Counted from the first letter of the stretch, positions 9,456-33,539 are shown. The stretch: DNA of 64,000 nucleotides from Terriglobia bacterium (GCA_963824985.1 CAWGRQ010000024.1:264822-328821); one strand, 5' to 3'. The notes: generated by a model from the letters alone, not told the origin. Made by a program: numbers and translations.

Positions 9456-10697
9456 ATGACATCAAAGACGGTCGTAGTCCTTGGCGGTGGCGTCGGAGGG
9501 ATGATCGCCGCCAATCGGTTGAGGGAGCGCCTGACTGCGGATCACCGCGTGGTGCTCGTGGAACGCGACGTCGATCACGCGTTCGCGCCTTCGTTTCTCT
9601 GGTTGATGACCGGCGACCGAAAACCCCATCAGGTGCGGCGCCCCGTGGCAGATCTGCTGCGTCGAGGGGTTGAATGCATTCATGGCAACGTGGAAGCGCT
9701 CGACCTGACCAAGAGGAAAGTGTTCACGAGTGCCTGCGAAATCCCTTTCGACTACCTCATCGTGGCCGTAGGCGCGGACCTGGCGCCGGATGCCGTTCCA
9801 GGTTTGGCGGAGGCTTCAGAAACATTCTACACGTTTGAGGGTGCCTCGCGACTCCACAATGCCTTGGCGGGCTTCGCCGGCGGCAGCATCGCGGTCGTGG
9901 TAGCTGCAATGCCATACAAGTGCCCCGGCGCGCCGCACGAAGGGGCTATGCTGATCGCCGATTATTTCCGCCGAAATCAGCGCCGGACGGGCATTGACAT
10001 TCACCTCTACACCCCCGAACCGCAGCCGATGCCCGTGGCCGGGCCGCAACTGGGCGCGGCGGTTGTAGAGATGCTCGAAAGCAAGCAGGTCCGCTTCCGG
10101 CCTCTCCACACCCTGGCAGCCGTCGACCCGGCGGAGCGGGTCATGCGATTCCAACAAGGTAACACCGAGAGATACGACCTGCTCGTAGCCATTCCACCGC
10201 ATCGTGCGCCGCGCCTGGTGCGGGAGGCGGGTTTAACCAATGCCGCGGGTTGGGTGCCGGTGAATCCCCAGACGCTCGCAACGGAACATGTCGGCGTGTT
10301 TGCGCTTGGAGATGTAACCGCAATTCCTATCCCGGGGCGCTGGAAGCCGGATGTCCCCCTGATGCTGCCGAAAGCCGGCGTTTTCGCTCACGTGCAGGCT
10401 GAGGTAGTGGTGGCTCGGATTTCCGCTGAAATCGAAGGCCGGAAGCCCGATGCGACTTTCTGCGGCGACGGGTACTGCATGCTGGAAACGGGTGAGGACC
10501 TGGCAGGATTTGCCTTCGGGAACTTCTTTGCCGAGCCATCGCCTCAGGTTAAGCTGCGGCAAATCGGCAAGGCCTGGCATATCGGGAAAGTGTTGTTCGA
10601 GCGCTATTGGCTCTCGCCGCCGGGCTGGAGGCGGGCGACATACGGAGCCATGTTGAAGATGGGCGGCAGGCTATACGGCATTCCCATCGCTGTCTGA
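9456..10697 (+). CDS. sqr: Sulfide:quinone oxidoreductase (FAD-dependent, SQR family)
   Basis: N-terminal FAD fold VVVLGGGVGGMIAA. Conserved SQR cysteine motif PYKCPGAPHEGA. 413 aa. Immediately follows the desulfurase. Confidence 0.75.
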   Translation: MTSKTVVVLGGGVGGMIAANRLRERLTADHRVVLVERDVDHAFAPSFLWLMTGDRKPHQVRRPVADLLRRGVECIHGNVEALDLTKRKVFTSACEIPFDYLIVAVGADLAPDAVPGLAEASETFYTFEGASRLHNALAGFAGGSIAVVVAAMPYKCPGAPHEGAMLIADYFRRNQRRTGIDIHLYTPEPQPMPVAGPQLGAAVVEMLESKQVRFRPLHTLAAVDPAERVMRFQQGNTERYDLLVAIPPHRAPRLVREAGLTNAAGWVPVNPQTLATEHVGVFALGDVTAIPIPGRWKPDVPLMLPKAGVFAHVQAEVVVARISAEIEGRKPDATFCGDGYCMLETGEDLAGFAFGNFFAEPSPQVKLRQIGKAWHIGKVLFERYWLSPPGWRRATYGAMLKMGGRLYGIPIAV

Positions 10698-10724
10698 ATA
10701 AGCGGAGTTTCAAAGGAAACACCC

Positions 10725-11075
10725 ATGCAATATTTGATGATTTTGAACGACGCACCATACGGCTCGGAACGCAGCTACAACGGTCTCCGGTTAGCGACCT
10801 CCCTTGCCAAATCGGAGGGAACCGGCGTTTCGGTTTTCTTGATCGGAGACGCTGCCTCCTGCGCAGTCACCGGGCAGACGACTCCCAACGGCTACTACAA
10901 CATCGAACGAATGCTGAAGCTTCTGGCGGCCAAGGGAGCACAGGTTGGGGTATGCGGCTCCTGCATGGATGCTCGTGGCATCAAACCGGAGATGCTGGCC
11001 GAGGGAGCGCATCGCGGCTCGATGGACGAACTTACCGGCTGGACCGTGGCAGCCGACAAGGTCCTCGTGTTCTGA
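10725..11075 (+). CDS. DsrE/DsrF-like sulfur-relay family protein
   Basis: 116 aa. MQYLMILNDAPYGSERSYNGLRLA...VFLIGDAASCAVTGQ...VCGSCMDARGI is characteristic of DsrE-family proteins. Confidence 0.7.
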   Translation: MQYLMILNDAPYGSERSYNGLRLATSLAKSEGTGVSVFLIGDAASCAVTGQTTPNGYYNIERMLKLLAAKGAQVGVCGSCMDARGIKPEMLAEGAHRGSMDELTGWTVAADKVLVF

Positions 11076-11106
11076 CGCCGATCCCGGCTGAGTCGCCCGG
11101 AGCGCT

Positions 11107-11787
11107 ATGAACATCACCCCGCAGACCTACGCCCGATGGAGAGAAACTGCCCTCGGCACTCTCACCGAGCAACTGGAACAGAGAGCCATCTTTTCACTCG
11201 TCGGTGATCCCAGCGGATTGACAGTCCTGGACGTCGGATGCGGTGACGGAGTCTATGCCGTCGCGGTATCGCAAAGAGGCGGCAAGGTCTTTGGCCTGGA
11301 TCGGTCGTTGCCCATGTTGGAGGCAGCGCGGACGAGGACAATCTCATCGGGCGCTTGCGTCAGGTGGTGCCAGGGTGCGGCCCAATCCTTGCCCTTTCTC
11401 GACGCCTCGTTTGACCTGGTCCTCGCGGTCACGGCGCTGTGCTGGATTCCAGAACCGGTCGTGGCTCTCAAGGAGATGAACCGGGTACTTCGCCCGGGCG
11501 GAGCTGTAATCGTTGGAGAACTTGGGCGCTGGAGTCTCTGGGCCCTTGCGAGAAGATTCCGGGGCTGGCTGGGCGCCGGCACCTGGAAGAGAGCTCATTT
11601 TTGGACCGCCAGGGAACTCCGTGAGATCCTCGCAAATGCCGGACTACGAGTGAGCGACATTCGCAGCGCGGTGTATTATCCACCGTCCGAGATTCTAGCC
11701 AGGCTGATGGGTTACATCGAGAGAGCCTCTGCCCGCTTTGGTCAATACGGAGCGGCGTTCATTTCCGTGAGGGCCACAAAGAAATAG
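11107..11787 (+). CDS. Class I SAM-dependent methyltransferase
   Basis: Motif I VLDVGCGDGVYAV. Post-I and motif II LRPGGAVIVGE. 226 aa. Confidence 0.7.
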   Translation: MNITPQTYARWRETALGTLTEQLEQRAIFSLVGDPSGLTVLDVGCGDGVYAVAVSQRGGKVFGLDRSLPMLEAARTRTISSGACVRWCQGAAQSLPFLDASFDLVLAVTALCWIPEPVVALKEMNRVLRPGGAVIVGELGRWSLWALARRFRGWLGAGTWKRAHFWTARELREILANAGLRVSDIRSAVYYPPSEILARLMGYIERASARFGQYGAAFISVRATKK

Positions 11788-12654: not shown

Positions 12655-14349
12655 CTAGCGGATCTGCTGCACCGTTACCTGCCCGCTTCCCGGGTCGCCG
12701 CGAACCCGGAAAAGATGATCCGCTTCAACCGAAAAGGCGGAGGATACTTCCTTGCCTGCATATGGGCCCGAAACCCAGCGGAAGACCACCTGGTGCTCGC
12801 CGGCGGCGATTTTCGGAATCTGCGCGGGATAAGGAGTCGGCAACTTCCTTCCGTCCAACTCGATTTCACACCCCTCGTAAGCATTGTTGGGCACTTCGAT
12901 GTAGGCGCCGCCCAGGCCTGGAATGGGAATGGAAACCGTCTCATCGGGCTTCAAACGGACGGCAGCCGGCTTCTGATCGAGATACATTTCCTCGCTGACC
13001 AGGCGGAAGCGGTGCTGACCGGCGGAAACCGGCAATGATTGCGTGGAAGTCAGATCCCGCAGCTTGCGCGTGCCGTCGTAAACCGTCACCGGATAAACAA
13101 TGCCGGAGAACTCGAAGCTCACTTCCGCCCGGGCCGGCTTCTCGATCACGGGAGCCTCTTTCACCGGAGCCTGCGCCGGTTCGGTCACGGCAGCGGCTGC
13201 TTTGGCCGGCGGCTGAGCCTGCGTCGATTCGGGGACCGGCGAGACCTGCCCCGCTTTCCGCTCCGGGGTTGAGGCGCCCGGTTGCGTGGCTGCGGGCGGT
13301 GGCCCTCCGGCAGCTGGTCTGGAAGCCGATGCCGGATCGACGGCACCCGGCTCACCCGCCACGGGGATCGGGGGTACCGGAGTCAAGTAGTGCCGATAGA
13401 CATAGTAGCCGCCGATCCCGACGGCGATCACGAGAAAGGCGGCAAGCGTCGCCAGCGCGAATCGGCGTCCGCTGCGGGGCTTTTCCGGAGCCGCTACGGG
13501 AATCGCCCGGGTCCCGGCCGCATTGGCGGGCAGCGACGTATAGTTTTTCAAATCCTCAATCAGCTCGGCACAACTCTGATACCGCTGGGCGGGATCCTTC
13601 GCCAGCATGCGGCTGACGATCTGGTCGAATGAAGGGTGAAGGGTCACATTCAGCTGCCGGGGCGGAACCGGATCTTCGTGCAGGATCTTGTACAGGATCG
13701 TCGTCGGGTTCGCCCCCGCAAACGGTTTTTCTCCGGTGAGCATTTCGTAGAAAATGACCCCCAGAGAAAAAATGTCCGACCGGCCGTCCAGGGTCTGGCC
13801 CATGGCCTGTTCCGGCGACATATATGCGGGCGTGCCCATGATGGCGCCCGTCTGGGTGAGGTTGGCCGTGGAAATCTTTGCGATGCCGAAGTCGGCGATC
13901 TTCGCCTTCATATCCGAGGTCAGGAGAATGTTCCCCGGCTTGATATCCCTGTGGATAATGCCGCGCGCGGTCGCGTATTCGAGCCCGGCGGCAATCTGCT
14001 CGATAATGGATACCGTTTCCGGCACCGGAGGCACGGGATTCCTCGCCATCCATTCCTGCAGGGTTTCGCCTTCCACAAACTCCATTGCAATATACGCGAC
14101 GTTGTCTTCCTCGCCGATATCGTAAATGGTGACGATGTTCGTGTGACTGAGGTTCCCCGCGGACTGGGCCTCCCGATACAGCCGCTGCCGGAGTTCCGTC
14201 TGCTCCAGGCCGATGCCCGAATCGAACCGAATAGTCTTGATGGCAACTACCCGCCCGATCAGAGGATCGACGGCTTTGTACACGACCGCCATCGCCCCAG
14301 CCCCAAGCTCATGTTCGACTTCATACCTGCCGATACGCTTTTTGGTCAT
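12655..14349 (-). CDS. Hanks-type Ser/Thr protein kinase with one TM helix and a periplasmic C-terminal domain
   Basis: Kinase motifs GAGAMAVVYKA, VAIK, HRDIKPGNILL, DFGIAK, GTPAYMSPEQ. TM FALATLAAFLVIAVGIGGYYVY. Pro/Ala-rich linker, then a roughly 200-aa C-terminal beta-rich (PEGA-like) domain. SD gagagg upstream of the ATG at 14349. Confidence 0.8.
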   Translation of the reverse strand: MTKKRIGRYEVEHELGAGAMAVVYKAVDPLIGRVVAIKTIRFDSGIGLEQTELRQRLYREAQSAGNLSHTNIVTIYDIGEEDNVAYIAMEFVEGETLQEWMARNPVPPVPETVSIIEQIAAGLEYATARGIIHRDIKPGNILLTSDMKAKIADFGIAKISTANLTQTGAIMGTPAYMSPEQAMGQTLDGRSDIFSLGVIFYEMLTGEKPFAGANPTTILYKILHEDPVPPRQLNVTLHPSFDQIVSRMLAKDPAQRYQSCAELIEDLKNYTSLPANAAGTRAIPVAAPEKPRSGRRFALATLAAFLVIAVGIGGYYVYRHYLTPVPPIPVAGEPGAVDPASASRPAAGGPPPAATQPGASTPERKAGQVSPVPESTQAQPPAKAAAAVTEPAQAPVKEAPVIEKPARAEVSFEFSGIVYPVTVYDGTRKLRDLTSTQSLPVSAGQHRFRLVSEEMYLDQKPAAVRLKPDETVSIPIPGLGGAYIEVPNNAYEGCEIELDGRKLPTPYPAQIPKIAAGEHQVVFRWVSGPYAGKEVSSAFSVEADHLFRVRGDPGSGQVTVQQIR

Positions 14350-14558
14350 GGGACCGGAATCCTCTCTTGATCTTCGTATGCCGCCGGGAAGGCGCCCCAT
14401 ACCCAGAAGTGCATTCTAATTCAGGAAGATGGCGTTCCACAAGCATCCGGAATTGAAATTCCACCATGAGAGCCCTAAACTTACGATATACTTTTTTCGG
14501 GTGCCATGATTGACAATCGGGTTAAACACTCTGACGCCAAAATGAATTGGAGGAAAGC

Positions 14559-15524
14559 ATGAAACTGCATCGCCTGGCGGGGTTGTTCCTTTTGCTTGTT
14601 CTCACCGGTTTCGTTTCCTCCCCGGAAGCCCAGCAAAAGAAAAGGGTAGCGCTCATGGATTTCGATTTTGGAACCGTGCAGCACTGGTGGTCCGGCAACT
14701 GGGATATCGGCAAAGGGATCGCGGACATCATCGTGACCGACCTGGTGAAAGACGGCACCTTTTCGGTGGTCGAGCGCAAGAAACTGGACGCCATTCTGCA
14801 AGAGCAGAATTTCTCAAACTCGGACCGGGCCAATCCGACCAGCGCCGCCAAGATCGGCAAGGTGCTCGGTGTGAACGCGATCATCGTCGGATCGATCACA
14901 CAGTTCGGTCTGGAGGACAAATCGCTGAATGTCGGCGGCATGCTCGGCACCCTGGGCGGATTCGGGGGCGGCAAGATCGGGACCAAGCAGGGGAAGGCCA
15001 ACGTCGTTATTGACGCTCGCCTCGTGGACGTCAACACGGGCGAAATTCTGGCCGTGGCTTCCGGCAAGGGAACATCCAAGAGATCCGGCCTCCTGTTGGG
15101 TGGGGGCGGGGGTGGCGGCGGCGGATACGGCGGCGGCGGCATTGACATGGGGAGCAGCAACTTCCAGGACACCATCCTCGGTGAAGCTACGAGAGAGGCG
15201 GTTCAGTCTCTGACGACGCAACTGATCGGGCAGGCTGGGAAAGTCGAAGCGACGACCATTTCCATCGAAGGATTGGTCGCGGACGCCACGGGTGATACCG
15301 TCATCATCAATGTCGGCAAGAGCTCCGGTGTCAGCGTGGGCATGAAGCTGTCCGTCGAGCGGGTTTCGCGCGAGGTGAAGGATCCCGCCAGCGGAAAGGT
15401 ATTGCGAAAAATAACGAGCCCGGTCGGGGAAATCCAGATTACAGAAGTCGACGAGGGTTCGGCGGTGGCCAAAGTTCTCTCCGGCCAGGGCTTCAAGGTT
15501 GGAGACATGGTCAAGAACAAGTAG
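14559..15524 (+). CDS. CsgG-family (curli secretion channel-like, COG1462) periplasmic protein with Gly-rich linker and extra C-terminal beta domain
   Basis: CsgG-like blocks RVALMDFDF, IADIIVTDLVKDGTFSVVERKKLDAILQEQ, AKIGKVLGVNAIIVGSITQFG, VVIDARLVDVNTGEILAV. Signal peptide without a lipobox Cys. Poly-Gly GGGGGGGGGYGGGG. GGAGG SD 5 nt before the ATG at 14559. Confidence 0.65.
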   Translation: MKLHRLAGLFLLLVLTGFVSSPEAQQKKRVALMDFDFGTVQHWWSGNWDIGKGIADIIVTDLVKDGTFSVVERKKLDAILQEQNFSNSDRANPTSAAKIGKVLGVNAIIVGSITQFGLEDKSLNVGGMLGTLGGFGGGKIGTKQGKANVVIDARLVDVNTGEILAVASGKGTSKRSGLLLGGGGGGGGGYGGGGIDMGSSNFQDTILGEATREAVQSLTTQLIGQAGKVEATTISIEGLVADATGDTVIINVGKSSGVSVGMKLSVERVSREVKDPASGKVLRKITSPVGEIQITEVDEGSAVAKVLSGQGFKVGDMVKNK

Positions 15525-15559
15525 GCAGCGACCTCGCTCACAACCGGAAGGGGGCACCC

Positions 15560-17482
15560 ATGATCGGCGAGCTGATCGGACACCACCGCATTCTGGCTCA
15601 AATCGGACAGGGGGGGATGGGCACCGTCTATCAGGCCGAGGACACCCGGCTGGGACGCAAGGTTGCGATCAAGATCCTGAATCCGTCCCTGCTCGTCCAG
15701 GGGGGCATTGAACTGGAGCGGTTCCAATCCGAGGCAAAGGTTCAGGCCAGCCTGAATCACGCCAACGTCGTCACTCTCTTTGCGTTCGAACCTTACCAGG
15801 ACTCCTATTGCATGATCATGGAGTACGTGGAGGGGAGGACGCTGGCGGATCTGATCCGCTCCACCGGCCCCCTTCCCTCTCATGTCGTTGTCATGATCGC
15901 CAAACAGGTGTTGGACGGGCTCGCCGCGGCACACCGGCAGGGGGTGGTTCACCGCGATCTGAAGCCCTCCAACATCATGCTGACCGCCCAAGGCACGGCG
16001 AAGGTGATGGATTTCGGCATCGCCAAGGTGGATGGCGGGAAAAGCCTGACCGCGACCGGCGCTCTGGTCGGCACCGTATCCTATATGTCACCCGAGCAGG
16101 TGCGCGGGGAGCCGCTGGACGCACGCTCGGACCTGTATTCCTTCGGGATCATTCTCTTCGAACTCCTGACCGGTCGCGTCCCCTTTAAGGAGGAGAGTGA
16201 TTTTTCCGTCATGATCCACCACGTCCAGACGCCGCCGCCGCCGCTGACGCAGCTGCTTCCGGACATCCCCTCGGAGCTGGAGGATCTGGTGCTTCGTTGC
16301 CTGCACAAACAGCCGGCGGAGCGTTTTCAGAGCGCGGCTGAGATTCGTGCGGTTCTGGAAAGTTACGAGGAGCGGGAGCGCGCCTTGGGCCGCGCCGAAC
16401 TTTACACTCGCGGTGTCCTGGCGCAATGGCTGGCCGCCCCCGCCCGGGCGCCATCGGCCGCCACGGCCTCCGCGATCCTCCCGGCACCCTCCATCGGGGC
16501 ACAGGGCGGGCCACCCCAACAGGCGGCGGCGCTGTTCGGCCCGGATCCGTCGGGGGCACGTTCGATTCCGTCCGGTCCGGCGCCCGCCACGCCGACGCCC
16601 ACCCGCGGCAAAGGGGTTCTGATAGCAGCAGTCGCCGTCATGATCCTGGCGGCAGGAACCGCGTTAACCTATTTCGTGATGAACCGGCCCGCCGCCTTTC
16701 AGTTTGCCGTGAAGTCGGGCGAACCGGCCGCGCCGCAGGCTCAGGCCTCGGCGGCGTTAACGGTTCCGGAAACGGCACCGGCGGCGACGGGGCAGCCCCC
16801 TGCGCAGTCCACCCCACAGGTGTCCGCGAACGCAATGGCCCAGGCTCCCGCCTCTCCGCCAGTCGCCGGAACCGCCAGCGCATTAACGGTGCCTGCGGTC
16901 GAAAAATATGCTGCCCCTGCTCGTAAGGTGCCGGCCCGGCCGGTGCGCGCTGATCCTCCGGCTGCCGGCGCGGCTGCTCCCAAATCAACGACCGCCGCCG
17001 GGCAGACTGCGGCCCAGGTGGATCCCGTACAGACTCAATCCGCAGGCGGTTTCCTGATTTTCGTAGATCTGGACCCTTCCAGTGAAAGACTGCCCCTGGC
17101 TGCGGCTCAATCCCGGGTAGCAGAAATCCTACGCGAGGCCGGCTGCCAGGTTGTGTCCTCCGGAATCGTGAGCACCAACGTAAGGGCGGCTCTGGATCGC
17201 AATGATCTCGCGGCAGTGCGCAGCCAGGGAGTCGGGTATGTGGTCCTGGGGACGGCGCACGCTTCCCTGGAGCCGCAGACGGCTTACGGCAGCACCTATT
17301 ATGTCGGTCAGGCCACCATGGCATTCGAACTGGTGCGCATGTCGGATGGAAAGATCGCCGCCACCGGAAGCAGCGATGCCAGGAGCAAGGGCTCGGCGAA
17401 TGCGCAGGCTTCTCTGAATAACGCCCTTATGACCGCAACCTCCGACGCCGCCCGCGAATTAATGCGCAACTTCAAGCAATAA
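15560..17482 (+). CDS. Hanks-type Ser/Thr protein kinase with TM helix and C-terminal periplasmic alpha/beta domain
   Basis: GQGGMGTVYQA, VAIK, HRDLKPSNIML, DFGIAK, TVSYMSPEQ. TM VLIAAVAVMILAAGTALTYFV. C-terminal roughly 150 aa (FLIFVDLD...GYVVLGTAHASLEPQTAYGSTYYVGQATMAFELVRMSDGKIAATG) resembles the CsgG/LpoB-type fold of the adjacent gene (weak, by eye). Confidence 0.8.
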   Translation: MIGELIGHHRILAQIGQGGMGTVYQAEDTRLGRKVAIKILNPSLLVQGGIELERFQSEAKVQASLNHANVVTLFAFEPYQDSYCMIMEYVEGRTLADLIRSTGPLPSHVVVMIAKQVLDGLAAAHRQGVVHRDLKPSNIMLTAQGTAKVMDFGIAKVDGGKSLTATGALVGTVSYMSPEQVRGEPLDARSDLYSFGIILFELLTGRVPFKEESDFSVMIHHVQTPPPPLTQLLPDIPSELEDLVLRCLHKQPAERFQSAAEIRAVLESYEERERALGRAELYTRGVLAQWLAAPARAPSAATASAILPAPSIGAQGGPPQQAAALFGPDPSGARSIPSGPAPATPTPTRGKGVLIAAVAVMILAAGTALTYFVMNRPAAFQFAVKSGEPAAPQAQASAALTVPETAPAATGQPPAQSTPQVSANAMAQAPASPPVAGTASALTVPAVEKYAAPARKVPARPVRADPPAAGAAAPKSTTAAGQTAAQVDPVQTQSAGGFLIFVDLDPSSERLPLAAAQSRVAEILREAGCQVVSSGIVSTNVRAALDRNDLAAVRSQGVGYVVLGTAHASLEPQTAYGSTYYVGQATMAFELVRMSDGKIAATGSSDARSKGSANAQASLNNALMTATSDAARELMRNFKQ

Positions 17483-17711
17483 TCCACGGGCCTTTGGCGC
17501 ACCCGCGTGCATGAAAAGGTTACGCCTCTCTGGTTGGCAATTGTCGGGATCGGAATTGCAATCGCTATCGGCTTTTTCGAACTGCGAAGGCCGATTGGGA
17601 CCGCAATTGCGATTCCGACCCCGAAGGTTGTCGCCTTTTCCGCTATTTTCGGAGCAGCTCCTCATGCGCCATGGCGCACCCTGTGACGCATGAAAATATT
17701 AAGCTCCCATC

Positions 17712-17910
17712 GCCCTTTCACTGTGCCGCCCTTTCAGGGCTCTGGCCAGGTTGATCCCCTGTCCCCAGGGCTCACGCCCTGGGCTTTGCTGCACCACCCC
17801 TTCGGGGTTTTCCCATGGGCGAGATGCTCAGCCCTGAAGGGCGTAATAGCACAGCCCAGGGCGTAAGCCCTGGGCTGAGGTGCCAAGATCTCCAGCCCTG
17901 AAGGGCGGCA
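17712..17910. repeat. Cluster of six GC-rich hairpins with UUCG/GNRA/GAA loops (REP/BIME-like or structured ncRNA)
   Basis: Hairpins: gccctttcagggc (17727-39); cccagggc-tcac-gccctggg (17763-82); cccc-ttcg-gggg (17806-16); cagccctgaagggcg (17828-42 and 17892-17907); gcccagggc-gtaa-gccctgggc (17853-74). The cluster is flanked by 13-bp direct repeats attttcggagcag (17645-57 and 17949-61). Confidence 0.45.
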
Positions 17911-17982
17911 CAGAAACAGATCGGTTGATCGGCACCGGAATTGGCTCCATTTTCGGAGCAGAGTCCGGCGGCCGGACTCGCG

Positions 17983-18801
17983 TCATTCGGATAGGAATTG
18001 GATCAGGACAGCCGTGATATTGTCCGGGCCTCCGCGATCGTTGGCGAGATCGATCAGAGACTGGCAGGCATCGCCCGGCCCCGAGGACTCGGCCGCCACG
18101 GCGAAGATCTCCTGAGTCGACATCTGCGAGTGCAGGCCATCCGAACAGAGGAGCACGACATCGCCGGCCTGCACGGTGATGCTCTTGAGAGCAAGCTCAA
18201 CGGTCGGACGCACGCCCATCGCCTGGAGAAGGATATTGCGCCCGGGATGCCTCCGGCCTTCCTCTTCCGTAAGTTCGCCGTCGCCCACTTTCTGCCCGAT
18301 CAGCGATTGATCACGAGTTAACTGGCGAATCTGCCCCTGACGCAGGAGATAAGCCCGGCTATCCCCCACCTGGCCGATCAGGAGGCGGCCGTGGAGTTCG
18401 AGCACGGTTGTCAGGGTCGTGCCCATCCCGGCAAATTCATGGTTGCGGGCCGCAAGCTCATAGATGCGGCTGTTTGCGCTTCCAACGGCCTCGATCAGGA
18501 TCTCTTCCAGCAGGCTTTCATCCGGCTGTCCGGTCTCACGGATCAACTCCTGGACCTCGCGGTACAAGGTCCGGACGCAGAGCTTGCTCGCCATCTCTCC
18601 GGCAGCCGCCCCCCCCATCCCATCGGCCACTGCAAACAGGGCGCCGAAGTGGGCGGTCCGGAAGCGAAGCACCCCATTCGCCTCGATCCGGACTCCCTCA
18701 CTGAGATTGGCAACGACAAAGGAATCTTCGTTGTCCACACGCACACGACCGGTGTGCGTGCCGGCAAAAGCCTCGATGTGGGTCGGCGTGGCGGCGAACA
18801 T
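17983..18801 (-). CDS. PP2C-family (PPM) Ser/Thr protein phosphatase
   Basis: GRVRVDNEDSF...FAVADGMGG...DGLHS...DNITAVL. 272 aa. Divergent from the large kinase gene. Confidence 0.8.
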   Translation of the reverse strand: MFAATPTHIEAFAGTHTGRVRVDNEDSFVVANLSEGVRIEANGVLRFRTAHFGALFAVADGMGGAAAGEMASKLCVRTLYREVQELIRETGQPDESLLEEILIEAVGSANSRIYELAARNHEFAGMGTTLTTVLELHGRLLIGQVGDSRAYLLRQGQIRQLTRDQSLIGQKVGDGELTEEEGRRHPGRNILLQAMGVRPTVELALKSITVQAGDVVLLCSDGLHSQMSTQEIFAVAAESSGPGDACQSLIDLANDRGGPDNITAVLIQFLSE

Positions 18802-19239
18802 GTCACCTCAAGATTGGCTGATACCTTTTTATCGTTCCGCTTCGGAAAATGTCAACTCAAAAGCCCATGTTGCTGCTATAATTTGCATGCAGTAATGGCT
18901 GATAAGGGGGTGTGGTGCGCTCCCGACCATGCGATCGGGCGCCTCAAAGTGAATCGCGTCGAGTTTGTGGCTGGCAGTTGCCTCCTGACTCCCGGTCGCC
19001 CATCCTCCCGGCACCAAATCCGGCTTCGCTAATCCGGCATGCCCGACTCTGGGCGTAAACCGGATCGGATTTCGCCGCGAGCCACTTTGCAAATTCCGGG
19101 CTGTTGCTATGAGGCACGGGTCGAAACCAACCATGCACAATGCCACCTACCAGGCATCGGGGAATCCCCGATCGCAATCCTATTCTGCCATCCAGGATGG
19201 GGGCGGACACCGCATCCGGCTCCTGAAAAGACGATCCCG

Positions 19240-22200
19240 ATGATTCAGAAACTGGGCAAATATTCAATTGTCGAAAAACTGGGCGAAGGCGCCATGGGCG
19301 CGGTTTACAAGGCCTACGATGAGATCCTCGACCGCTATGTCGCCATCAAGACCATGGCGGAGGATATCAAGTGGGATCCTGAGCTCAAACTGCGGTTCTA
19401 CCGCGAAGCACGATCGGCGGCCGGCCTGCATCACCCCAATATCGTGACGATCCACGATCTCGGCGAAGAAGGGAAGATCACCTACATCGTCATGGAGTTC
19501 CTGCAGGGGAAGGATCTGAAGGACATCATCAGGGAAAAACCCCCTCTTGCCCTCGAAAAGAAGCTCGCCATTATCGCCCAGGTTTGTGAAGGGCTGAATC
19601 ACGCTCATCTGGCAGGCATCATCCATAGAGATATCAAGCCCGGAAACATCCACTTTTCGGCGGACGGGAATGTCAAGATCGTCGACTTCGGCATCGCGCG
19701 TATTCCCGCTTCGGATCTCACGCGATCCGGAGTTCGGCTGGGAACGCCCATTTATATGTCCCCGGAGCAGATTCGGGGCGAAGCCTATGACGAGCGGTCG
19801 GACATGTTCTCCACCGGCATCGTGTTCTATGAACTGGTCACGTATGTGCACCCGTTCCGCGACAAGAATATCGCCAAGACCCTGGACAATCTGCTGTTCC
19901 AGAATCATTTCCCGTTTGCCGAGCAGTGTCCCGAAGCCCCGCCCGCGCTGTGGCCCATCATCAGCACGAGCCTGGCAAAGGAGCCGGCAAAGCGGTTCCC
20001 GAGCATGGCGGAAATGGGCCGGGCCTGTCGCGGCCTCCTGGTCGAAATGAATGCTGCCTCGCGGAAAATGATGAGCGATCTGAGCGCTGTCGCGCCCCGC
20101 TTGCTCCAGGCGGCATCGCGCCCGGGAGCCCCTCCCCGCCTGGGAAGCTTGTTGCAGGAAACGCAGACCGCTCTCGGCATGCGGGAACCCCCGGATCACG
20201 CCACGCTCAAGCGGTTGCTGGATTCGCTGGCTGAGGAGCGCGTTCCGGTACAGCAGGTTGAGGTTTCGAGCGTGAGCCGGGAGGGGAGAATTCCCGATGC
20301 TTCTCCCCTGCCGCCGGAAGCGCCTCCCCCCGCAGTCGTTGCCCCTCCGCCTGACCCTGATGATGTGCGGGGGCGTGATCTTCTGCATGCGGGTCAGGCC
20401 CTGTTGCAGGAGGAGCGCTTGGACGAAGCCCTGACCATATTGCACCAGGCGGTGCGGCTGCTTGGGGAAAACCAGGAACTGGCTCAAGCCCTGGCCGAAG
20501 CCAACCGCCGAACCGCAGAGCGGAAACAGGTTCAGATTGCCGCGCTGGTCGACCGGGCACGCCTGGCCTTGGCGTCCCGACAATATACTTCCGCAATCGA
20601 AGCCCTCAACGAGGTCCTGCAGCAGGAACCCGGTCATGCTGAAGCCGCGGAACTGCGGCATCAGGCGGTAGCCGAAGCCGAGGCCGAACGCGAGCAACAG
20701 GCGCGCCAGGCGGAAGGTGAGAGGGAAAAAGCCTCGGGACTGAAGCTGCTGAGCGAGGGGAAATTTCCCGAGAGCATAACGGCATTGCGGCGCGCGGCCG
20801 ACCTGCTGGGCAGTAATCCCGAGATCGAGCGGGCGCTCCGCGAAGCCGGTGAAAAGGACAAGGCGGAGCAGCAGCGGCGCCTGGTCCAGGCGAAGCTGGG
20901 GGAGGCGGTCGCCCAGCTGCGCTCCAAGGCATTCGATCAGGCCGAGACCTCGGCCCGGCAGGTGTTGGAGATCTTCCCCGGCAATGTTGAGGCGGAGGAT
21001 CTCCTGTCGCGCATCGACCGGGCGCGGCAACAGGAGCGCCGGGCCGCCGAAATTTCAAACCTCCTGGCGCAGAGCCGGGAACAACTCGACCATCAGGATT
21101 TCGAGGCTGCGCAAGCGCGCACCCGGGAAATCATGGCCCTCGATCCTGCGAACGCGGATGCCCAGTCCCTGCTCCAGGCCATTGCGGAGGCGCGGGAGAC
21201 GAAGCGGAAACAGGAAGCGATCGAGGCTGCCATCTCCGAGGGGCAGAAGGCTTTCCTTCGTGATGAAGTGGAAGAGGCTGAGAAGTTTGCGCGCCTGGCA
21301 CTCGATGCTGATCCGCAGCATGGTAAGGCGCTGGAACTCATGCGCCGCATAACGGAAATTCGCGACCGGAAGAAAAGGGAGGAGATCGCCGCTATCGTCG
21401 CCCGAGGCCGGCAGGCCCTGGTGCAGGGAGACCTGCAGGAGGCGGCCTCCCTGGGACAGCAGGCACTCCAGGCGGATCCCGAAAGTATCGAGGCGCGGAA
21501 TTTCCTCGCGTCTCTGCGGCAGGCTGAGGAATCCAGGCGTCAGGAAAAACTGGCCGCGTTTCTTGCCGGGAGTCGCCAGGCGCTGGAGAGTGGTGATTTT
21601 GCCGAGGCGACGCGCCAGGCGGAAGCCCTGCAACATCTGGATGCGCGCAACCGGGAGGCGGCTTCCCTGCTGAAGGATATCAATAACGCACGCCGCAAAA
21701 AGGAGAAGGCGGACGACAAGGAGAGGAAGCGCCTCGAAAAGGAGTCCCGCCGTCTGGCGCAGGCAACGGCGGATACGGCGCCTGAAACCGTCGATGGCGC
21801 GATTCCGGCGGAGACCACTCCGCGCCGCGGGCTGCCGAAAGCCGTAATCTGGGCCAGTGCCGGCGCGCTCCTGCTCATCATCGCAGCCGTTCTGGCATGG
21901 CAGCTGCCCCGGCTCCGGAGCAACCCCCCTGAACCGGCTGCTCAACTCGCCGCGGCCCAGACTCAACTCGATCGCGGCCTGTTCGATGAAGCAATTGCCG
22001 CCGCCCGGGAGGTTCTGGCCACTTCACCGAACAACGCCCAGGCCCAGACCTTGATCGAGGTGGCGCAAAAACAGAAAATCGCGAAGGAGGTTGCGATGCT
22101 CCTGATGGAAGCGCAGACTCTCCGATCCCAGGGGAGCCTCCAGGAGAGCCTGGACACCCTTGCGAAGTTGATATCCCTGGATCCCGCGAACGAGACCGCG

Positions 22201-23313
22201 CTGCTCGTTCAGGCCCAGATTGAAGGTGAAATCGCGGCCGGCAAGAGCAGCGCCGAACAGGAGGCCCTCGTCAAGGAGTGGCTGGCAAATGCCGCCCGGT
22301 TCCTGGGCGAAGGCAAGCAGGCCGAGGCGAAAAGGGCGCTGGACAACGTGGCAGGCCTCCGTCCGGACGCGCCCGAACTCAGACCCTTGCGCAACAAGCT
22401 GAAAGCGCTCACGGATGAAGCGGCCCGCGCCGAGAAAGGCAGAATCGATCTCGCCCAGAAACAGAAGCAAGTAGACGAGTGGAACAGTCAGGCCGGTGAG
22501 AAATTCAAGCAGGGAAGATATGGCGAAGCCTTGACAATCCTCGAACAGTGGCTGTCGGCAGCGCCGCAGAACGCGCAGGCGCAGGATTTGCAGCGCCAGG
22601 CATCCCTGGCGCAGCAGAGCCAGCGCGCCTATGACACTCACATGGCACAAAGGAACTATGACGAAGCCCTGAGGGCCGCGGCGCAACTGGAGAAAATCAA
22701 TCCTGCCGATCCTTCCGTTGCCGAGCTCCGCAAACGGGCGGAAGCACGCAAGGCGGCCGCCAAGGCGACCCTGTCCATTTACCGCCTGGGTGAACCGGCA
22801 AGCCTGTTTCTGGATGATGAACCGCTTGGAACCGCCGGCGAGTTGGAGGATCGCGTGGTCAGCGCCGGCCGGCATAAGGTCACGGTTCAAGTCAGCAGCG
22901 GCAAGCAGAGCACCTGGACCGCCGACCTGAGTGAAGGGCAGAAAGTGATCCTGGCCTATGATGCCGCCGCCCTGTCCTTGCGCCCCATGGTGGATGCGGA
23001 CCGTGAGTTGCTTTCCATGCGCAAAATCCGGGAAGAAGTCCACAGCTTCGAGGTGGAACACCGCCACGGGATTCTGGGCATCACCAAGTGCACCGGAATC
23101 CTGAAGATCAGCGGGCTCAGGGTCGAATTTCGGAGCCCGGATCATGCCCTGGATACGACTTTCGCCAACGTCAGGCTCAAGAACGCGAACAACGATCGGA
23201 TCGAACTGGAAACGGTCGACACCAAACAGTCATGGTCCTTTAAAATGCGGGATGCCGCCCAGGCAAAGGCAGTCAAGGAACTGTGGGACAGGTTGACCAA
23301 ACTCGGCAAATAG
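19240..23313 (+). CDS. Ser/Thr protein kinase with very long TPR/coiled-coil repeat region, single TM, periplasmic TPRs and C-terminal PEGA-like domain
   Basis: Start MIQKLGKYSIVEKLGEGAMGAVYKA at 19240; the 5' 200 nt of the track ORF look non-coding. HRDIKPGNIHF, DFGIAR. About 6 roughly 68-aa TPR-like repeats. TM AVIWASAGALLLIIAAVLAW. C-terminal TLSIYRLGEPASLFLDDEPLG...HKVTVQVSSG. Confidence 0.8.
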   Translation: MIQKLGKYSIVEKLGEGAMGAVYKAYDEILDRYVAIKTMAEDIKWDPELKLRFYREARSAAGLHHPNIVTIHDLGEEGKITYIVMEFLQGKDLKDIIREKPPLALEKKLAIIAQVCEGLNHAHLAGIIHRDIKPGNIHFSADGNVKIVDFGIARIPASDLTRSGVRLGTPIYMSPEQIRGEAYDERSDMFSTGIVFYELVTYVHPFRDKNIAKTLDNLLFQNHFPFAEQCPEAPPALWPIISTSLAKEPAKRFPSMAEMGRACRGLLVEMNAASRKMMSDLSAVAPRLLQAASRPGAPPRLGSLLQETQTALGMREPPDHATLKRLLDSLAEERVPVQQVEVSSVSREGRIPDASPLPPEAPPPAVVAPPPDPDDVRGRDLLHAGQALLQEERLDEALTILHQAVRLLGENQELAQALAEANRRTAERKQVQIAALVDRARLALASRQYTSAIEALNEVLQQEPGHAEAAELRHQAVAEAEAEREQQARQAEGEREKASGLKLLSEGKFPESITALRRAADLLGSNPEIERALREAGEKDKAEQQRRLVQAKLGEAVAQLRSKAFDQAETSARQVLEIFPGNVEAEDLLSRIDRARQQERRAAEISNLLAQSREQLDHQDFEAAQARTREIMALDPANADAQSLLQAIAEARETKRKQEAIEAAISEGQKAFLRDEVEEAEKFARLALDADPQHGKALELMRRITEIRDRKKREEIAAIVARGRQALVQGDLQEAASLGQQALQADPESIEARNFLASLRQAEESRRQEKLAAFLAGSRQALESGDFAEATRQAEALQHLDARNREAASLLKDINNARRKKEKADDKERKRLEKESRRLAQATADTAPETVDGAIPAETTPRRGLPKAVIWASAGALLLIIAAVLAWQLPRLRSNPPEPAAQLAAAQTQLDRGLFDEAIAAAREVLATSPNNAQAQTLIEVAQKQKIAKEVAMLLMEAQTLRSQGSLQESLDTLAKLISLDPANETALLVQAQIEGEIAAGKSSAEQEALVKEWLANAARFLGEGKQAEAKRALDNVAGLRPDAPELRPLRNKLKALTDEAARAEKGRIDLAQKQKQVDEWNSQAGEKFKQGRYGEALTILEQWLSAAPQNAQAQDLQRQASLAQQSQRAYDTHMAQRNYDEALRAAAQLEKINPADPSVAELRKRAEARKAAAKATLSIYRLGEPASLFLDDEPLGTAGELEDRVVSAGRHKVTVQVSSGKQSTWTADLSEGQKVILAYDAAALSLRPMVDADRELLSMRKIREEVHSFEVEHRHGILGITKCTGILKISGLRVEFRSPDHALDTTFANVRLKNANNDRIELETVDTKQSWSFKMRDAAQAKAVKELWDRLTKLGK

Positions 23314-23410
23314 TCCATGGCGCGCGGGAAAGAATTGGAAGATCGAAAGTGACTGCAGTATTCTCATGTGAGTCATGCAACACATCTGCCAGTCGGCGAG
23401 GGAGAGCACT

Positions 23411-23878
23411 ATGAAAGCAGCGCGTCACTTGCTTCTGTTGATTCCCCTGGGTCTGTCTTCTATGCTGTTGACCGGATGCCCCAAGCAGCCGGCCAAGATC
23501 AACATCGTTATGAACGCGGCCGCCAACATCAACCCGGATACGAGCGGTCAGGCCCTGTCGGTCGTGGTTCGCATCTATCAGCTCAAGGACAAGGGCCGCC
23601 TGGAATCCGCGGATTACAACGCCATCTGGAAGTCCGACAAGGAAACGCTCTCGGATGACCTGTTGGAAAGACAGGAGCGCATCGTGCAGCCGGGAACCCA
23701 GGAAATGATCGAGATCCAGACCAATCCGATGGCGAATTACCTCGCCGCGGTGGCTCTCTTCCGCAATCCTTCCGGAGACTCCTGGCGCAAGATCATCCCG
23801 ATCAACAAGGGCAAGACGCAGAAGATTGCTTTAGCCCTTCGCGAGCAGACCATCGAAATCACCTCGAGCGCCAGATAG
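23411..23878 (+). CDS. tssJ: Type VI secretion system lipoprotein TssJ (SciN/VasD family)
   Basis: Lipobox LLTGC. INIVMNAAANINPDTSGQALSVVVRIYQLKDKGRLESADYNAIW...LGVVALFRNPSGDSWRKIIPI closely follows the TssJ/SciN pattern (INPD..G.A.P.VVRLYQLK). GGGAGAG SD. Confidence 0.8.
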   Translation: MKAARHLLLLIPLGLSSMLLTGCPKQPAKINIVMNAAANINPDTSGQALSVVVRIYQLKDKGRLESADYNAIWKSDKETLSDDLLERQERIVQPGTQEMIEIQTNPMANYLAAVALFRNPSGDSWRKIIPINKGKTQKIALALREQTIEITSSAR

Positions 23879-23890
23879 GGACCACGGATC

Positions 23891-25243
23891 ATGACACCAC
23901 TGCAGAAAGTCCTGTGGAGCGAGGGGCTGTTCCTGACCCCTCACCACCTTCAACAATGGGATCGATATCACGAAGACGTGTTGAACTTCCGCATTCGCGC
24001 GCTGTCGACCTTCATGTGGGGCGCGGAAGAGCTGAAGTTCAATGAGGAGGCGCTCGAAAACGGCACCTTTGAAGTCCTGCGTTGCCGAGCCGTCCTGCCG
24101 GACGGCTCGGCGATCGACATCCCCGATGTCGATGCTCCGCCGCCGCTGCGCGACTTCACGGATTGCTTCGCCCCGACCAGCGACCGCATGGATGTCTACC
24201 TTGCCGTGCCGGTGGTGCGTTCCGGATCCGCTAATGTGGCGGGGACGGACAAGAAGGCCGCCTTCATGGCGCGCTACCTGCCGACGCAGGCTCATGTCCC
24301 GGATGAAAACACGGGCGAGAATGAGTTGCCAGTGACCTTCGCGGCCAAAAACATGCGCCTCCTGTTCGGGGAGGAGTCGCTCGACAATCATGCGGCTCTC
24401 AAGATCGCCGAGGTGCGCCGCACCCCGGAAGGCAAGACCGTTCTGGAGGAGGGGTACATCCCGCCGGCTTTGAGCCTCTCTGCGGCGCGCCCTTTAACCG
24501 ATATTGTCCGCCGCCTGCTCGAGATCCTGTCCGCCAAGAGCACAACGCTTGGAGAGCAGCGCCGGCAAAAGTCCGCCGGAGTCGCCGACTTTACCACTTC
24601 GGACGTGGCGACCTTCTGGCTGCTGCACACGGTGAACGCCTACATTCCGTCGATGATGCACTTCCACCACGTTCAGCGCGTACATCCCGAGCAGCTCTAC
24701 CTGACGATGGCGAGCCTGGCCGGCGAACTGATGACCTTCGTCACGGAAGGGCACCCGACCGAACTCCCCAAATACATCCACACCGATCTGACCAACACGT
24801 TCGCCCAGCTGGATCGCAAGCTGCGGGTCTTGCTCGAAACCGTCATCCCCACCCGCTGTGTGCCGATTCCCCTGGAGCGAACCAAGGAATCTCTCTACAT
24901 CGGCCGGATTCTGGACGAACGCCTGCCGGTCAGCGCCGAGTTTTACCTTGGTGTCTACGCCAAGCTTCCCGAAGCCCAGATATTGGAGAGGGTGCCGCGC
25001 AAGAGCAAGATCGCCTCGCTCGACACCATCAACTATCTGCTGGGCCAGGCACTCCCCGGCGTGCTGCTCCGCCCGGTGCCGGTGCCACCGGGTCCGATTC
25101 CCGTTCGAGTCGGCTTCAAGTATTTCCGGCTCGAAAAGCTGGGCACCTATTGGGACACCATCGCAGCGTCACGCAACATCTGTATATACTTCCCGGCGGA
25201 ATTTCCCGATCTCCGCCTCGAGCTGTTTGCCGTCAAAGATTGA
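23891..25243 (+). CDS. tssK: Type VI secretion system baseplate subunit TssK (ImpJ/VasE)
   Basis: 450 aa. N-terminal LWSEGLFLTPHHLQQWDRYHE matches the TssK consensus (LWSEG.FL.PQHFQQ.DRY). Lies between tssJ and tssL. Confidence 0.8.
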   Translation: MTPLQKVLWSEGLFLTPHHLQQWDRYHEDVLNFRIRALSTFMWGAEELKFNEEALENGTFEVLRCRAVLPDGSAIDIPDVDAPPPLRDFTDCFAPTSDRMDVYLAVPVVRSGSANVAGTDKKAAFMARYLPTQAHVPDENTGENELPVTFAAKNMRLLFGEESLDNHAALKIAEVRRTPEGKTVLEEGYIPPALSLSAARPLTDIVRRLLEILSAKSTTLGEQRRQKSAGVADFTTSDVATFWLLHTVNAYIPSMMHFHHVQRVHPEQLYLTMASLAGELMTFVTEGHPTELPKYIHTDLTNTFAQLDRKLRVLLETVIPTRCVPIPLERTKESLYIGRILDERLPVSAEFYLGVYAKLPEAQILERVPRKSKIASLDTINYLLGQALPGVLLRPVPVPPGPIPVRVGFKYFRLEKLGTYWDTIAASRNICIYFPAEFPDLRLELFAVKD

Positions 25244-25441
25244 CATCGGGGGGTGCGGCTTGTAGGCCGCGAAATTATTGACGTCTGGAACCTGTTGTGA
25301 CGAATCAGTTGACTGATCTGCCGGAGTTCCATGTGTCGGCCAGCGGGCTATCGCCGCTTCCCGGCCCGTGCGCCCCTCGCCGCAGGTCTGATTGGGTGTC
25401 ACAAAACTCTTCAGTCCCCTTCGGGGAAAAGGTATGAGGCC

Positions 25442-26158
25442 ATGACTCCGGCTCGCGATCCACACGAGGCGACTTCGTTTGAATCCTCCTCAGGCACCAG
25501 TCCCGGCCTGGTCGATTTGTGCACGGACGCCTTTCTGTTGATCTTTTTTATCCACCAGGGGAGGGACCCGGGCCAGCCCGACCAGCTGCGCAAGGAGATT
25601 GCGCTCCTGCTTCAGGATCTGGATAAACGGGGCAAAAGGCATGGGTACGGAGAGGAGGATCTCAAGGCGGCGCGGTATGCGTTATGTGCTCTGCTGGACG
25701 AGACCATCCTCAATTCCCGTTGGTCCTACAAGGACCAGTGGGCCGACCGCCCGCTCCAGCTCGAATATTTCGGCGAACACATGGCCGGGGAGAGGTTTTT
25801 CGATCTGCTCGACCGAGTGCGCGGGAAGGGCTCCCGCAAGGTCGATTTGCTCGAGGTTTTCTGCATGGCCCTGATTCTGGGGTTTCAGGGACGGTACAAG
25901 TTGCGCGGCAGCGATGAGCTGCCCAACCTGATCCGGGAACTGGTCGGAGAAATCAACGGACATCGGGGTTCCCCACGCGGCCTGTCTCCTCACGGACAGA
26001 TTCCGGAAGAGCCGGAAGAGGCTCCGGCCAGAGTGTTGCCCCGTTGGGTGTGGATCACGGCCCTGACTTCAGTGATCCTGGTGATTCTCGTGTTTGTCAT
26101 TTTCAAGCTTTGGCTCGGCTCGACTGCGGACCAGGCCATAGCGCGCATGGTGGTGTAA
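25442..26158 (+). CDS. tssL: Type VI secretion system membrane subunit TssL (DotU/ImpK family)
   Basis: DotU-family block YALCALLDETILNS...RKVDLLEVFCMALILGFQGRY. Single C-terminal TM VWITALTSVILVILVFVIF. Confidence 0.75.
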   Translation: MTPARDPHEATSFESSSGTSPGLVDLCTDAFLLIFFIHQGRDPGQPDQLRKEIALLLQDLDKRGKRHGYGEEDLKAARYALCALLDETILNSRWSYKDQWADRPLQLEYFGEHMAGERFFDLLDRVRGKGSRKVDLLEVFCMALILGFQGRYKLRGSDELPNLIRELVGEINGHRGSPRGLSPHGQIPEEPEEAPARVLPRWVWITALTSVILVILVFVIFKLWLGSTADQAIARMVV

Positions 26159-26261
26159 CCGACATCGGCAGGGCTCCTTTCCCGCCCGGACTTTTCCCGG
26201 ACGGGAATGATGTCGGATCGCACCTCTCCTTGAAACCGGAAGGCCGAAAAAGCGCTACCTT

Positions 26262-33400: not shown

Positions 33401-33539
33401 TAAAAATCCGGAGCCGGAAGACCAAGCCCAAACCCACCTCAGGGCGCGGCGGCGGCGGACGGTAAACGGTTTTGGGCGGATCCAACTTCCGATCCGCCGC
33501 CTCCTCATGGGCGGGATCTCCACGATCCCGCCCATTTAA
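30460..33539 (+). pseudogene. S9-family (prolyl oligopeptidase/DPP-type) serine peptidase with TolB-like beta-propeller, disrupted by at least 4 frameshifts
   Basis: Pieces lie in frames of ORFs 30391, 30653, 31140, 31405, 32242 and 32901. N-terminal signal peptide, WD-like propeller (RWTPDGTGVAYMS), catalytic GGHSYGAF (GxSxG), LLMYHGMHDQNVG. Paralog of the intact gene at 49914-52097 and shares its Gly/Arg-rich insert. One shift is a G-run deletion at about 32840. Confidence 0.6.

Follow-up and report, generated by a model that had tools for sequence, protein, structure and literature searches.

A trio of genes at positions 12655-17482 of a 64,000-nt stretch of DNA from a Terriglobia bacterium (GCA_963824985.1 CAWGRQ010000024.1:264822-328821; the whole stretch is referred to here as the window) encodes two Hanks-type Ser/Thr kinases, K1 and K2, on either side of a CsgG-like protein. 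With moderate confidence, the three genes are interpreted as chance, lineage-specific neighbours, and K2 as an accessory membrane kinase of a threonine-phosphorylation module linked to a type VI secretion system (T6SS) in a small acidobacterial clade. In addition to K2, which would serve as an extra sensor kinase, the module would comprise a PP2C phosphatase, the kinases K3 and K4, FHA proteins, and TssJKLM. The genes and domains concerned are as follows.

12655-14400, minus strand: K1, single-pass Hanks Ser/Thr kinase (581-aa open reading frame; Pkinase E 2.5e-54, residues 26-275)
14559-15524, plus strand: CsgG-family/FlgT-like secreted protein (321 aa; PF03783 CsgG, E 4.3e-40)
15560-17482, plus strand: K2, single-pass Hanks Ser/Thr kinase (640 aa; Pkinase E 2.2e-58, residues 12-257)
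16613-17041, plus strand: transmembrane helix of K2 (residues ~352-374, by hydropathy scan) and its 122-residue Ala/Pro-rich linker
17042-17479, plus strand: K2C, sensor domain of K2 (residues 495-640, 146 aa; CsgG/PelC/GNA1162/LpoB-type alpha/beta fold)
17983-18801, minus strand: PP2C phosphatase, PppA-like (PP2C_2 E 7e-17; adjacency to K2 kept in locus L088)
19039-23313, plus strand: K3, Hanks kinase with a long TPR region (1424 aa; Pkinase E 1.9e-51 and TPR families)
23375-29873, plus strand: tssJ, tssK, tssL, and tssM (T6SS-SciN E 4.5e-34, T6SS_VasE 5e-136, DotU 6.6e-57, and IcmF families)
45107-47266: K4, kinase with TPR (Pfam)
47315-48058: FHA protein (Pfam)
48164-49879, plus strand: FHA-FHA-SLT protein (Pfam; SLT, lytic transglycosylase)

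The gene order in the window is K1 (minus strand), CsgG-like (plus), K2 (plus), PP2C (minus), K3 (plus), and TssJ/K/L/M (plus). The three open reading frames of the trio, and the PP2C, K3, and TssJ/K/L/M genes that begin downstream of it at 17983, are located where an earlier note on this DNA had placed them, and both flanking genes encode membrane-anchored Hanks kinases, as that note had also proposed, each with a Pkinase match, one hydrophobic segment, and the catalytic motifs. K1 and the CsgG-like gene are divergent and separated by a 158-bp spacer, while the CsgG-like gene and K2 lie on the same strand with a gap of 35 bp, in which no terminator-like site was found. Because K1 is on the opposite strand and divergent, an operon is possible only for the CsgG-like gene and K2, and the short gap suggests that these two genes are probably co-transcribed in this lineage.

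The earlier note had read the trio as a module in which kinase signalling is coupled to CsgG-type secretion, and had named a lack of conserved synteny in advance as the outcome that would speak against it. Conserved synteny proved to be absent. From the side of the CsgG-like gene, the comparison covered 80 loci of different species (identity 45-85%, for the most part metagenome-assembled genomes of Acidobacteriota) and extended up to 8 kb to either side as far as the contigs reached. A kinase gene occurs within 8 kb in only 2 of the 80 (1.7 kb downstream in L025 and 6 kb away in L067); neither kinase is of the K1 or K2 type, as no K1C (the C-terminal domain of K1) or K2C domain was found in any of the 80 loci. 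The other neighbours of the window that were sought in the same loci (cysteine desulfurase, SQR, DsrE, methyltransferase, metallophosphoesterase, PP2C, K3, and TssJ/K) were not found either. Even the CsgG-like genes that are 85-87% identical to the window copy reside in unrelated contexts; the genes for P0013 and P0012 (86-87% identical) are located between accD/folC, in one case with an MFS gene, and a gene for a thioredoxin-domain protein. From the side of K2, a CsgG-like gene was found in none of 17 orthologue loci (K2C identity 56-79%), including the 10 with upstream sequence, and a search with relaxed hidden Markov models (HMMs; E up to 10) revealed neither a hidden CsgG-like gene in the K2 loci nor a K2C domain in the CsgG loci. 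The arrangement of K1, CsgG-like gene, and K2 is repeated only in L087, a fragment of 2.1 kb whose source strain is 98% identical. As far as the compared loci indicate, the juxtaposition of the three genes is specific to a single species-level lineage. The literature was also searched for CsgG-like proteins in combination with kinases, and for this fold as a kinase sensor, and nothing relevant was found. A coupling between a kinase and a CsgG-like protein would, if true, represent a new kind of link between signalling and secretion, but the comparative evidence is not supportive.

The neighbours of K2 that do recur in its closest relatives are genes of protein phosphorylation and of the T6SS. 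In L088, K2 is followed by PP2C (82% identity, minus strand) and then by K3 (88%), which is the arrangement of the window, and in L093 a K3 homologue (67%) directly follows K2. In L089 and L090, K2 is followed by a kinase with a PEGA domain and then by homologues of the FHA-FHA-SLT protein (61%; 9463-11319 on the minus strand in L089) and of the FHA protein (49%), and by TssM. Clustering of kinase, PP2C, and FHA genes with core genes of the T6SS is thus found in the window and in L088, L089, L090, and L093, that is, in the closest orthologues only. The minimal form of the T6SS threonine-phosphorylation pathway (TPP) consists of a kinase (TagE/PpkA), a phosphatase (TagG/PppA), and an FHA protein (TagH) (PMC13584744), and the gene set of the window, with its kinases, PP2C, and FHA proteins, matches this pathway. 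The position of the FHA-FHA-SLT protein beside the FHA protein, K2, and TssM suggests a phosphorylation-dependent remodelling of peptidoglycan that would be linked to the T6SS. K3 itself is unusually large, with many TPR repeats, and the best Pfam match of its C-terminal ~180 residues is BiPBP_C, at an E-value of 0.063.

K2 has a complete set of catalytic motifs (VAIK, HRDxKPxN, DFG, and SPE), and all 15 full-length K2 orthologues share its architecture of one transmembrane segment followed by an Ala/Pro-rich linker of 122-170 residues. The domain at the end of this linker, K2C, is rare. The window sequence of K2C has no Pfam match at E-values up to 10, and its relatives number 8 in a word-indexed search of 5.8 billion clusters and 11 in an exhaustive HMMER scan of 1.84 billion representatives. 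The full-length relatives P0131 and P0132 are kinases of the same architecture, and the short ones are mis-called C-terminal fragments; in L001, for example, a transmembrane segment and linker are encoded upstream in frame. K2C is therefore a rare family of sensor domains for which no Pfam model exists. A distant K2C-like domain (residues ~199-336, E 9e-5) is also present in P0138, a secreted non-kinase protein of 342 aa with a weak FlgO match, so the family occurs outside kinases as well.

The earlier note had judged by eye that the C-terminal domain of K2 adopts a CsgG/LpoB-type alpha/beta fold, and structure prediction bears this out. The AlphaFold2 (AF2) model of K2C, built from a 9-sequence alignment, has a pLDDT of 89.5 and a pTM of 0.83, and its secondary structural elements follow the order beta, three helices, three long strands, and helix. 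A Foldseek search against the PDB returned matches with a probability of 1.00, E-values from 1.4e-5 to 8e-4, and TM-scores of 0.5-0.65, the top one being CsgG 4uv2 (E 1.4e-5, TM 0.56-0.59). PelC (5t0z, 5t10, 5t11, and 9h80) and Cj1090c (7rxu, TM 0.60/0.65) are also matched, as are GNA1162 (4hrv), HpaA, FlgT (3w1e), and LpoB (4q6l). With the model of the CsgG-like protein as query, Foldseek found these same PDB entries again, and in the N-domain of that model the elements come in the same order as in K2C. K2C and the CsgG-like protein show no detectable homology at the level of sequence: hhalign gave probabilities of 0.84% with a 9-sequence profile and 0.64% with an 18-sequence profile, and the stretch that it aligned, the beta-hairpin picked out by the earlier note, is topologically sensible but not significant. 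A K2C profile likewise had no match among PDB sequences at E-values up to 10. The sub-threshold Pfam matches among 18 K2C members are to GNA1162-like in 9 (best E 2e-4), LptE in 2, and CsgG in 2. Judging from the models, K2C and the CsgG-like domain are related at the level of fold only; K2C is nearer to small proteins of the PelC/GNA1162/LpoB/LptE type than to CsgG proper, and is no recent copy of its neighbour.

The middle protein of the trio belongs to the CsgG family, as the earlier note had stated, with a PF03783 match of 137.7 bits (cut-off 20.8) that spans residues 21-229 and profile positions 3-204 of 210; the word “channel” in its description came from annotation and is not an observation from the sequence. 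Weaker Pfam matches are to FlgT_M (E 8e-5, under the cut-off), TolB_N, LpoB, FlgO, and GNA1162-like, families that share the fold of the structures matched by Foldseek. In the protein, a signal peptide lacking a lipobox is followed by a CsgG-type alpha/beta domain and, at the C-terminal end, by a beta domain; its distinguishing segments are as follows.

14934-14975, plus strand: first Gly-rich segment (residues 126-139; pLDDT <50; kept across 29 homologues)
15090-15155, plus strand: second Gly-rich segment, including the poly-Gly run (residues 178-199; pLDDT <50; family-conserved)
15267-15518, plus strand: C-terminal beta domain (residues 237-320; FlgT_C/TsaP-like; pLDDT ~80-88)

The claimed lack of a lipobox Cys holds throughout: the protein contains no Cys at all, and a lipobox is likewise missing from each of 29 aligned homologues, so the lipid anchor expected of a curli channel is missing. 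The extra C-terminal beta domain that had been noticed is also real, as the C-terminal 85 residues, when scanned alone, match FlgT_C (PF16538) at 28.3 bits (cut-off 27), and the domain matches the TsaP chain of PDB 3jc8 (E 1.8e-5). The poly-Gly run, which had been described as a linker between domains, is not one; GGGGGGGGGYGGGG (residues 181-194) sits within the CsgG domain, between its last beta strand and closing helix. In the AF2 model (pLDDT 70.3, with both Gly-rich segments below 50), the second Gly-rich segment is located between strand 163-180 and helix 206-224, which, from the topology of CsgG, is presumably the site of the second CsgG membrane hairpin; the segment is essentially poly-Gly and, by inspection, lacks the alternating hydrophobic pattern expected of a membrane strand. 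HMM alignment to E. coli CsgG (4uv2 residues 65-175) pairs the first segment with a Gly-rich stretch of that protein, which we take to be the first membrane hairpin. The best full-length Foldseek matches of the model are FlgT 8z5n (E 4e-15), from the LPHT ring of Vibrio, and FlgT 3w1e (E 9.5e-15); CsgG follows at E 3e-7. An FlgT-like architecture, in which an FlgT_M-type domain is followed by FlgT_C, is thus present together with a full-length structural match.

Homologues of the CsgG-like protein are abundant (6412 at E <=1e-5, mostly annotated as acidobacterial CsgG), and the best 120 share 60-87% identity with it. The GC content at third codon positions of its gene (0.76, against 0.71-0.79 in neighbouring genes) reveals no anomaly of the kind left by horizontal transfer. 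No curli genes (csgA/B/E/F) are adjacent to it in the window or present among the recurrent neighbours of the 80 loci, and no flagellar genes were found among the window open reading frames scanned or among those recurrent neighbours. The sole neighbour that recurs across the 80 loci is a secreted protein of ~200 aa, encoded directly upstream on the same strand in 25 of them (for example, at 7337-7951 in L015); it has no Pfam match and no counterpart in the window, and the acidobacterial CsgG/FlgT-like family may have its true partner in this protein. The family is present in thousands of genomes beside variable neighbours. For the middle protein, a housekeeping function in the envelope is most likely, and it is probably an oligomeric scaffold that is periplasmic or close to the outer membrane. 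A curli-type outer-membrane channel is doubtful because the lipid anchor is missing, the presumed site of the second hairpin is nearly poly-Gly, and the curli context is lacking; identity with the curli channel is accordingly unlikely.

Less can be said about K1. Its catalytic motifs include VAIK, HRDIKPGN, DFG, and SPE, with a Gly-loop of GAGAMAVV, and it has one hydrophobic segment (residues ~313-335), followed by a Pro/Ala-rich stretch and a beta-rich C-terminal region. The true start of the gene is likely to be the ATG at 14349, as the gene call in the 98%-identical strain (L087) begins with MTKKRIGRY. The extracytoplasmic domain is the following.

12658-13128, minus strand: K1C, extracytoplasmic C-terminal domain of K1 (residues ~425-581; beta-rich)

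K1C has no Pfam match (the best is CopC, E 0.16) and a single homologue among the 5.8 billion clusters, P0139, with 53% identity and encoded on a 984-bp contig; by these searches, it would be nearly an orphan. An impression by eye that K1C consists of two PEGA-like repeats was not significant, as Pfam returned no such match; BLASTP against the PEGA kinase of L089 revealed no similarity, and P0139 matches PEGA only at an E-value of 0.03.

Two side observations concern other parts of the window. The convergent spacer between K2 and PP2C (17483-17982) contains a pair of RNA motifs that face each other.

17764-17809, plus strand: Acido-Lenti-1 RNA motif (Rfam RF01687, 49.7 bits; gathering score 37)
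17830-17874, minus strand: Acido-Lenti-1 RNA motif (Rfam RF01687, 49.0 bits; gathering score 37)

The pair lies inside a larger stable inverted-repeat structure (17715-17920, -130 kcal/mol, z -9.8), accompanied by further direct repeats; we know of no function for the Acido-Lenti-1 motif. Farther downstream, an open reading frame of 212 aa (32901-33539, plus strand) has a match to the Peptidase_S9 profile in the C-terminal part of that profile only (positions 46-212 of 213) and may be a fragment or a pseudogene.

Several observations weigh against the interpretation of K2 as part of a T6SS-linked module. The linkage to T6SS genes is limited to the four loci with the closest K2C domains (67-79% identity), and in nine loci with more distant orthologues and downstream sequence (L001, L082-L084, L094-L096, L099, and L100) the neighbours are unrelated: a UDP-glucose dehydrogenase gene adjoins K2 in L083, and in L084 K2 lies beside exopolysaccharide genes (polysaccharide deacetylase, epimerase, and sugar-transferase). 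Only tssJKLM are present in the window, and no gene for a sheath, tube, spike, or ClpV was found among the selected open reading frames scanned; either the T6SS is split across loci or the window carries a partial set. The 35-bp gap without a terminator-like site also counts here, since the probable co-transcription of the CsgG-like gene and K2 could reflect a real, recently acquired functional link. The neighbours of the distant orthologues raise the possibility, unlikely but of appreciable weight, that K2 is a general sensor kinase for the state of the envelope or of exopolysaccharide, unrelated to the T6SS, and that its adjacency to the T6SS genes is a clustering of signalling genes. PelC, among the best structural matches of K2C, is an exopolysaccharide-export lipoprotein, and the T6SS gene set of the window does look incomplete. 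However, all four closest loci have PP2C/K3 or FHA/FHA-SLT/TssM genes beside K2, and because these neighbours recur in different gene orders, selection on the linkage of K2 is suggested.

The other explanations give the CsgG-like protein a part in signalling. That K2 senses or docks onto an oligomer of this protein through its domain of the same fold, in this lineage at least or in trans, is improbable. The shared fold is real, the 35-bp gap on one strand suggests co-transcription, the 98%-identical strain retains all three genes, and the fold matches include ring assemblies (the PelC dodecamer entries and the FlgT-containing LPHT ring); moreover, with 6412 homologues, the CsgG-like protein is common in Acidobacteria, so a contact in trans would be compatible with the lack of synteny. 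Against these points stand the adjacency itself, which is not conserved (2 of 80 and 0 of 17 loci), the hhalign probabilities of 0.6-0.8%, the closer resemblance of K2C to GNA1162/PelC/LptE-type proteins than to CsgG, and the 85-87%-identical CsgG-like proteins without a kinase neighbour, whose function is therefore independent of one. It is possible that the adjacent CsgG/FlgT-like protein is the partner of K2C in this lineage, as co-transcription is likely and the fold is shared, but conservation, as judged from these loci, speaks against it as a general partner. A more elaborate version, to which very little credence is given, would have K2C, tethered to the inner membrane, act as a subunit mimic that docks on or intercalates into a CsgG/FlgT-like ring, in trans or co-expressed, so that the state of the ring would operate the T6SS phosphorylation switch; if it were true, a Hanks kinase would read the assembly of, or damage to, an outer-envelope ring, functionally replacing TagQRST. 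It is equally hard to believe that the CsgG-like protein is a genuine CsgG-type secretion channel of the outer membrane, with K1 and K2 regulating the export of its substrate. The Pfam CsgG match is strong, and the Gly-rich segments aligned with the presumed first CsgG hairpin are strictly conserved in the family, but the lipobox Cys is missing (the PDB entry of non-lipidated E. coli CsgG, 4uv2, is titled as a pre-pore conformation), the near-poly-Gly sequence at the presumed second-hairpin site shows no alternating hydrophobic pattern, neither adjacent curli genes nor kinase synteny were found, and the best structural match is the periplasmic FlgT and not CsgG.

Among known systems, the T6SS TPP (P. 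aeruginosa H1-T6SS, Agrobacterium, and Serratia) is similar in that single-pass Hanks kinases, PP2C, and FHA proteins are encoded beside genes of the T6SS membrane complex, and here the linkage of K2 to those genes is kept in the closest relatives. The two differ in the number of kinases, which is three or four here and one in the TPP, and in the periplasmic domain of the kinase, which is of the von Willebrand A type in PpkA and of the CsgG/PelC/LpoB fold in K2. In addition, equivalents of TagQRST or RtkS were not identified here, and one FHA protein is a fusion with an SLT lytic transglycosylase.

With CsgG (PF03783, 4uv2/4uv3), the middle protein shares a match of 137.7 bits and an alignment to CsgG 65-175, and K2C also matches CsgG structures. 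The middle protein departs from CsgG in having no lipobox, no curli partners, Gly-rich sequence at the presumed hairpin sites, and an extra FlgT_C-like domain, and K2C departs from it in lacking the hairpin insertions and any significant sequence match. FlgT of the Vibrio H-ring (3w1e, 8z5n) gives the best whole-length match of the middle protein (~305-318 columns), together with the FlgT_M and FlgT_C Pfam matches. The TM-score of ~0.4 points either to a different orientation of the domains or to a model of modest quality (pLDDT 70); a flagellar context is also lacking here, and the sequence scores favour the CsgG family. K2C resembles PelC, GNA1162, Cj1090c, LpoB, and LptE in size (~130-160 residues) and topology (TM 0.5-0.65). 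These proteins are lipoproteins anchored in the outer membrane, whereas K2C is tethered to an inner-membrane kinase, so that the polarity is reversed.

Proteins with a fold of the K2C type work through protein–protein contacts at the outer membrane or peptidoglycan, as in the pairs LpoB/PBP1B, PelC/PelB, and TolB-N/TolA and in the rings of CsgG and FlgT, and LpoB spans the periplasm to reach PBP1B on a long disordered tether. Because the proteins of this fold group act by such contacts and the tether of LpoB is long, a mechanism that depends on an envelope partner is proposed for K2 as an accessory kinase of the T6SS-linked module. From sequence, we infer that K2 would regulate the T6SS, and infer likewise the kind of ligand that K2C would bind and the mode of activation. 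The disordered Ala/Pro-rich tether of 122-170 residues would let K2C reach the peptidoglycan or the zone of the outer membrane, where it would bind an envelope partner or report the state of the envelope. Binding would lead to the dimerisation and autophosphorylation of K2 and to the phosphorylation of FHA-binding targets; the FHA proteins encoded in the T6SS-linked cluster would then recognise the resulting phospho-threonines, and the PP2C phosphatase would reset the system.

For the Acidobacteria, two consequences follow. The annotation “CsgG”, which is very common in this group, is probably misleading for a protein that carries no lipid anchor, is similar to FlgT, and lacks a curli context. 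The new element here is a T6SS-associated Hanks kinase whose sensor domain, rare and unannotated, has the CsgG/PelC/LpoB fold and is borne on a long tether. To our knowledge, only in a few proteobacteria is it known which signals act upstream of T6SS phosphorylation pathways (TagQRST and RtkS), and a different type of sensor in Acidobacteria is for this reason a useful lead.

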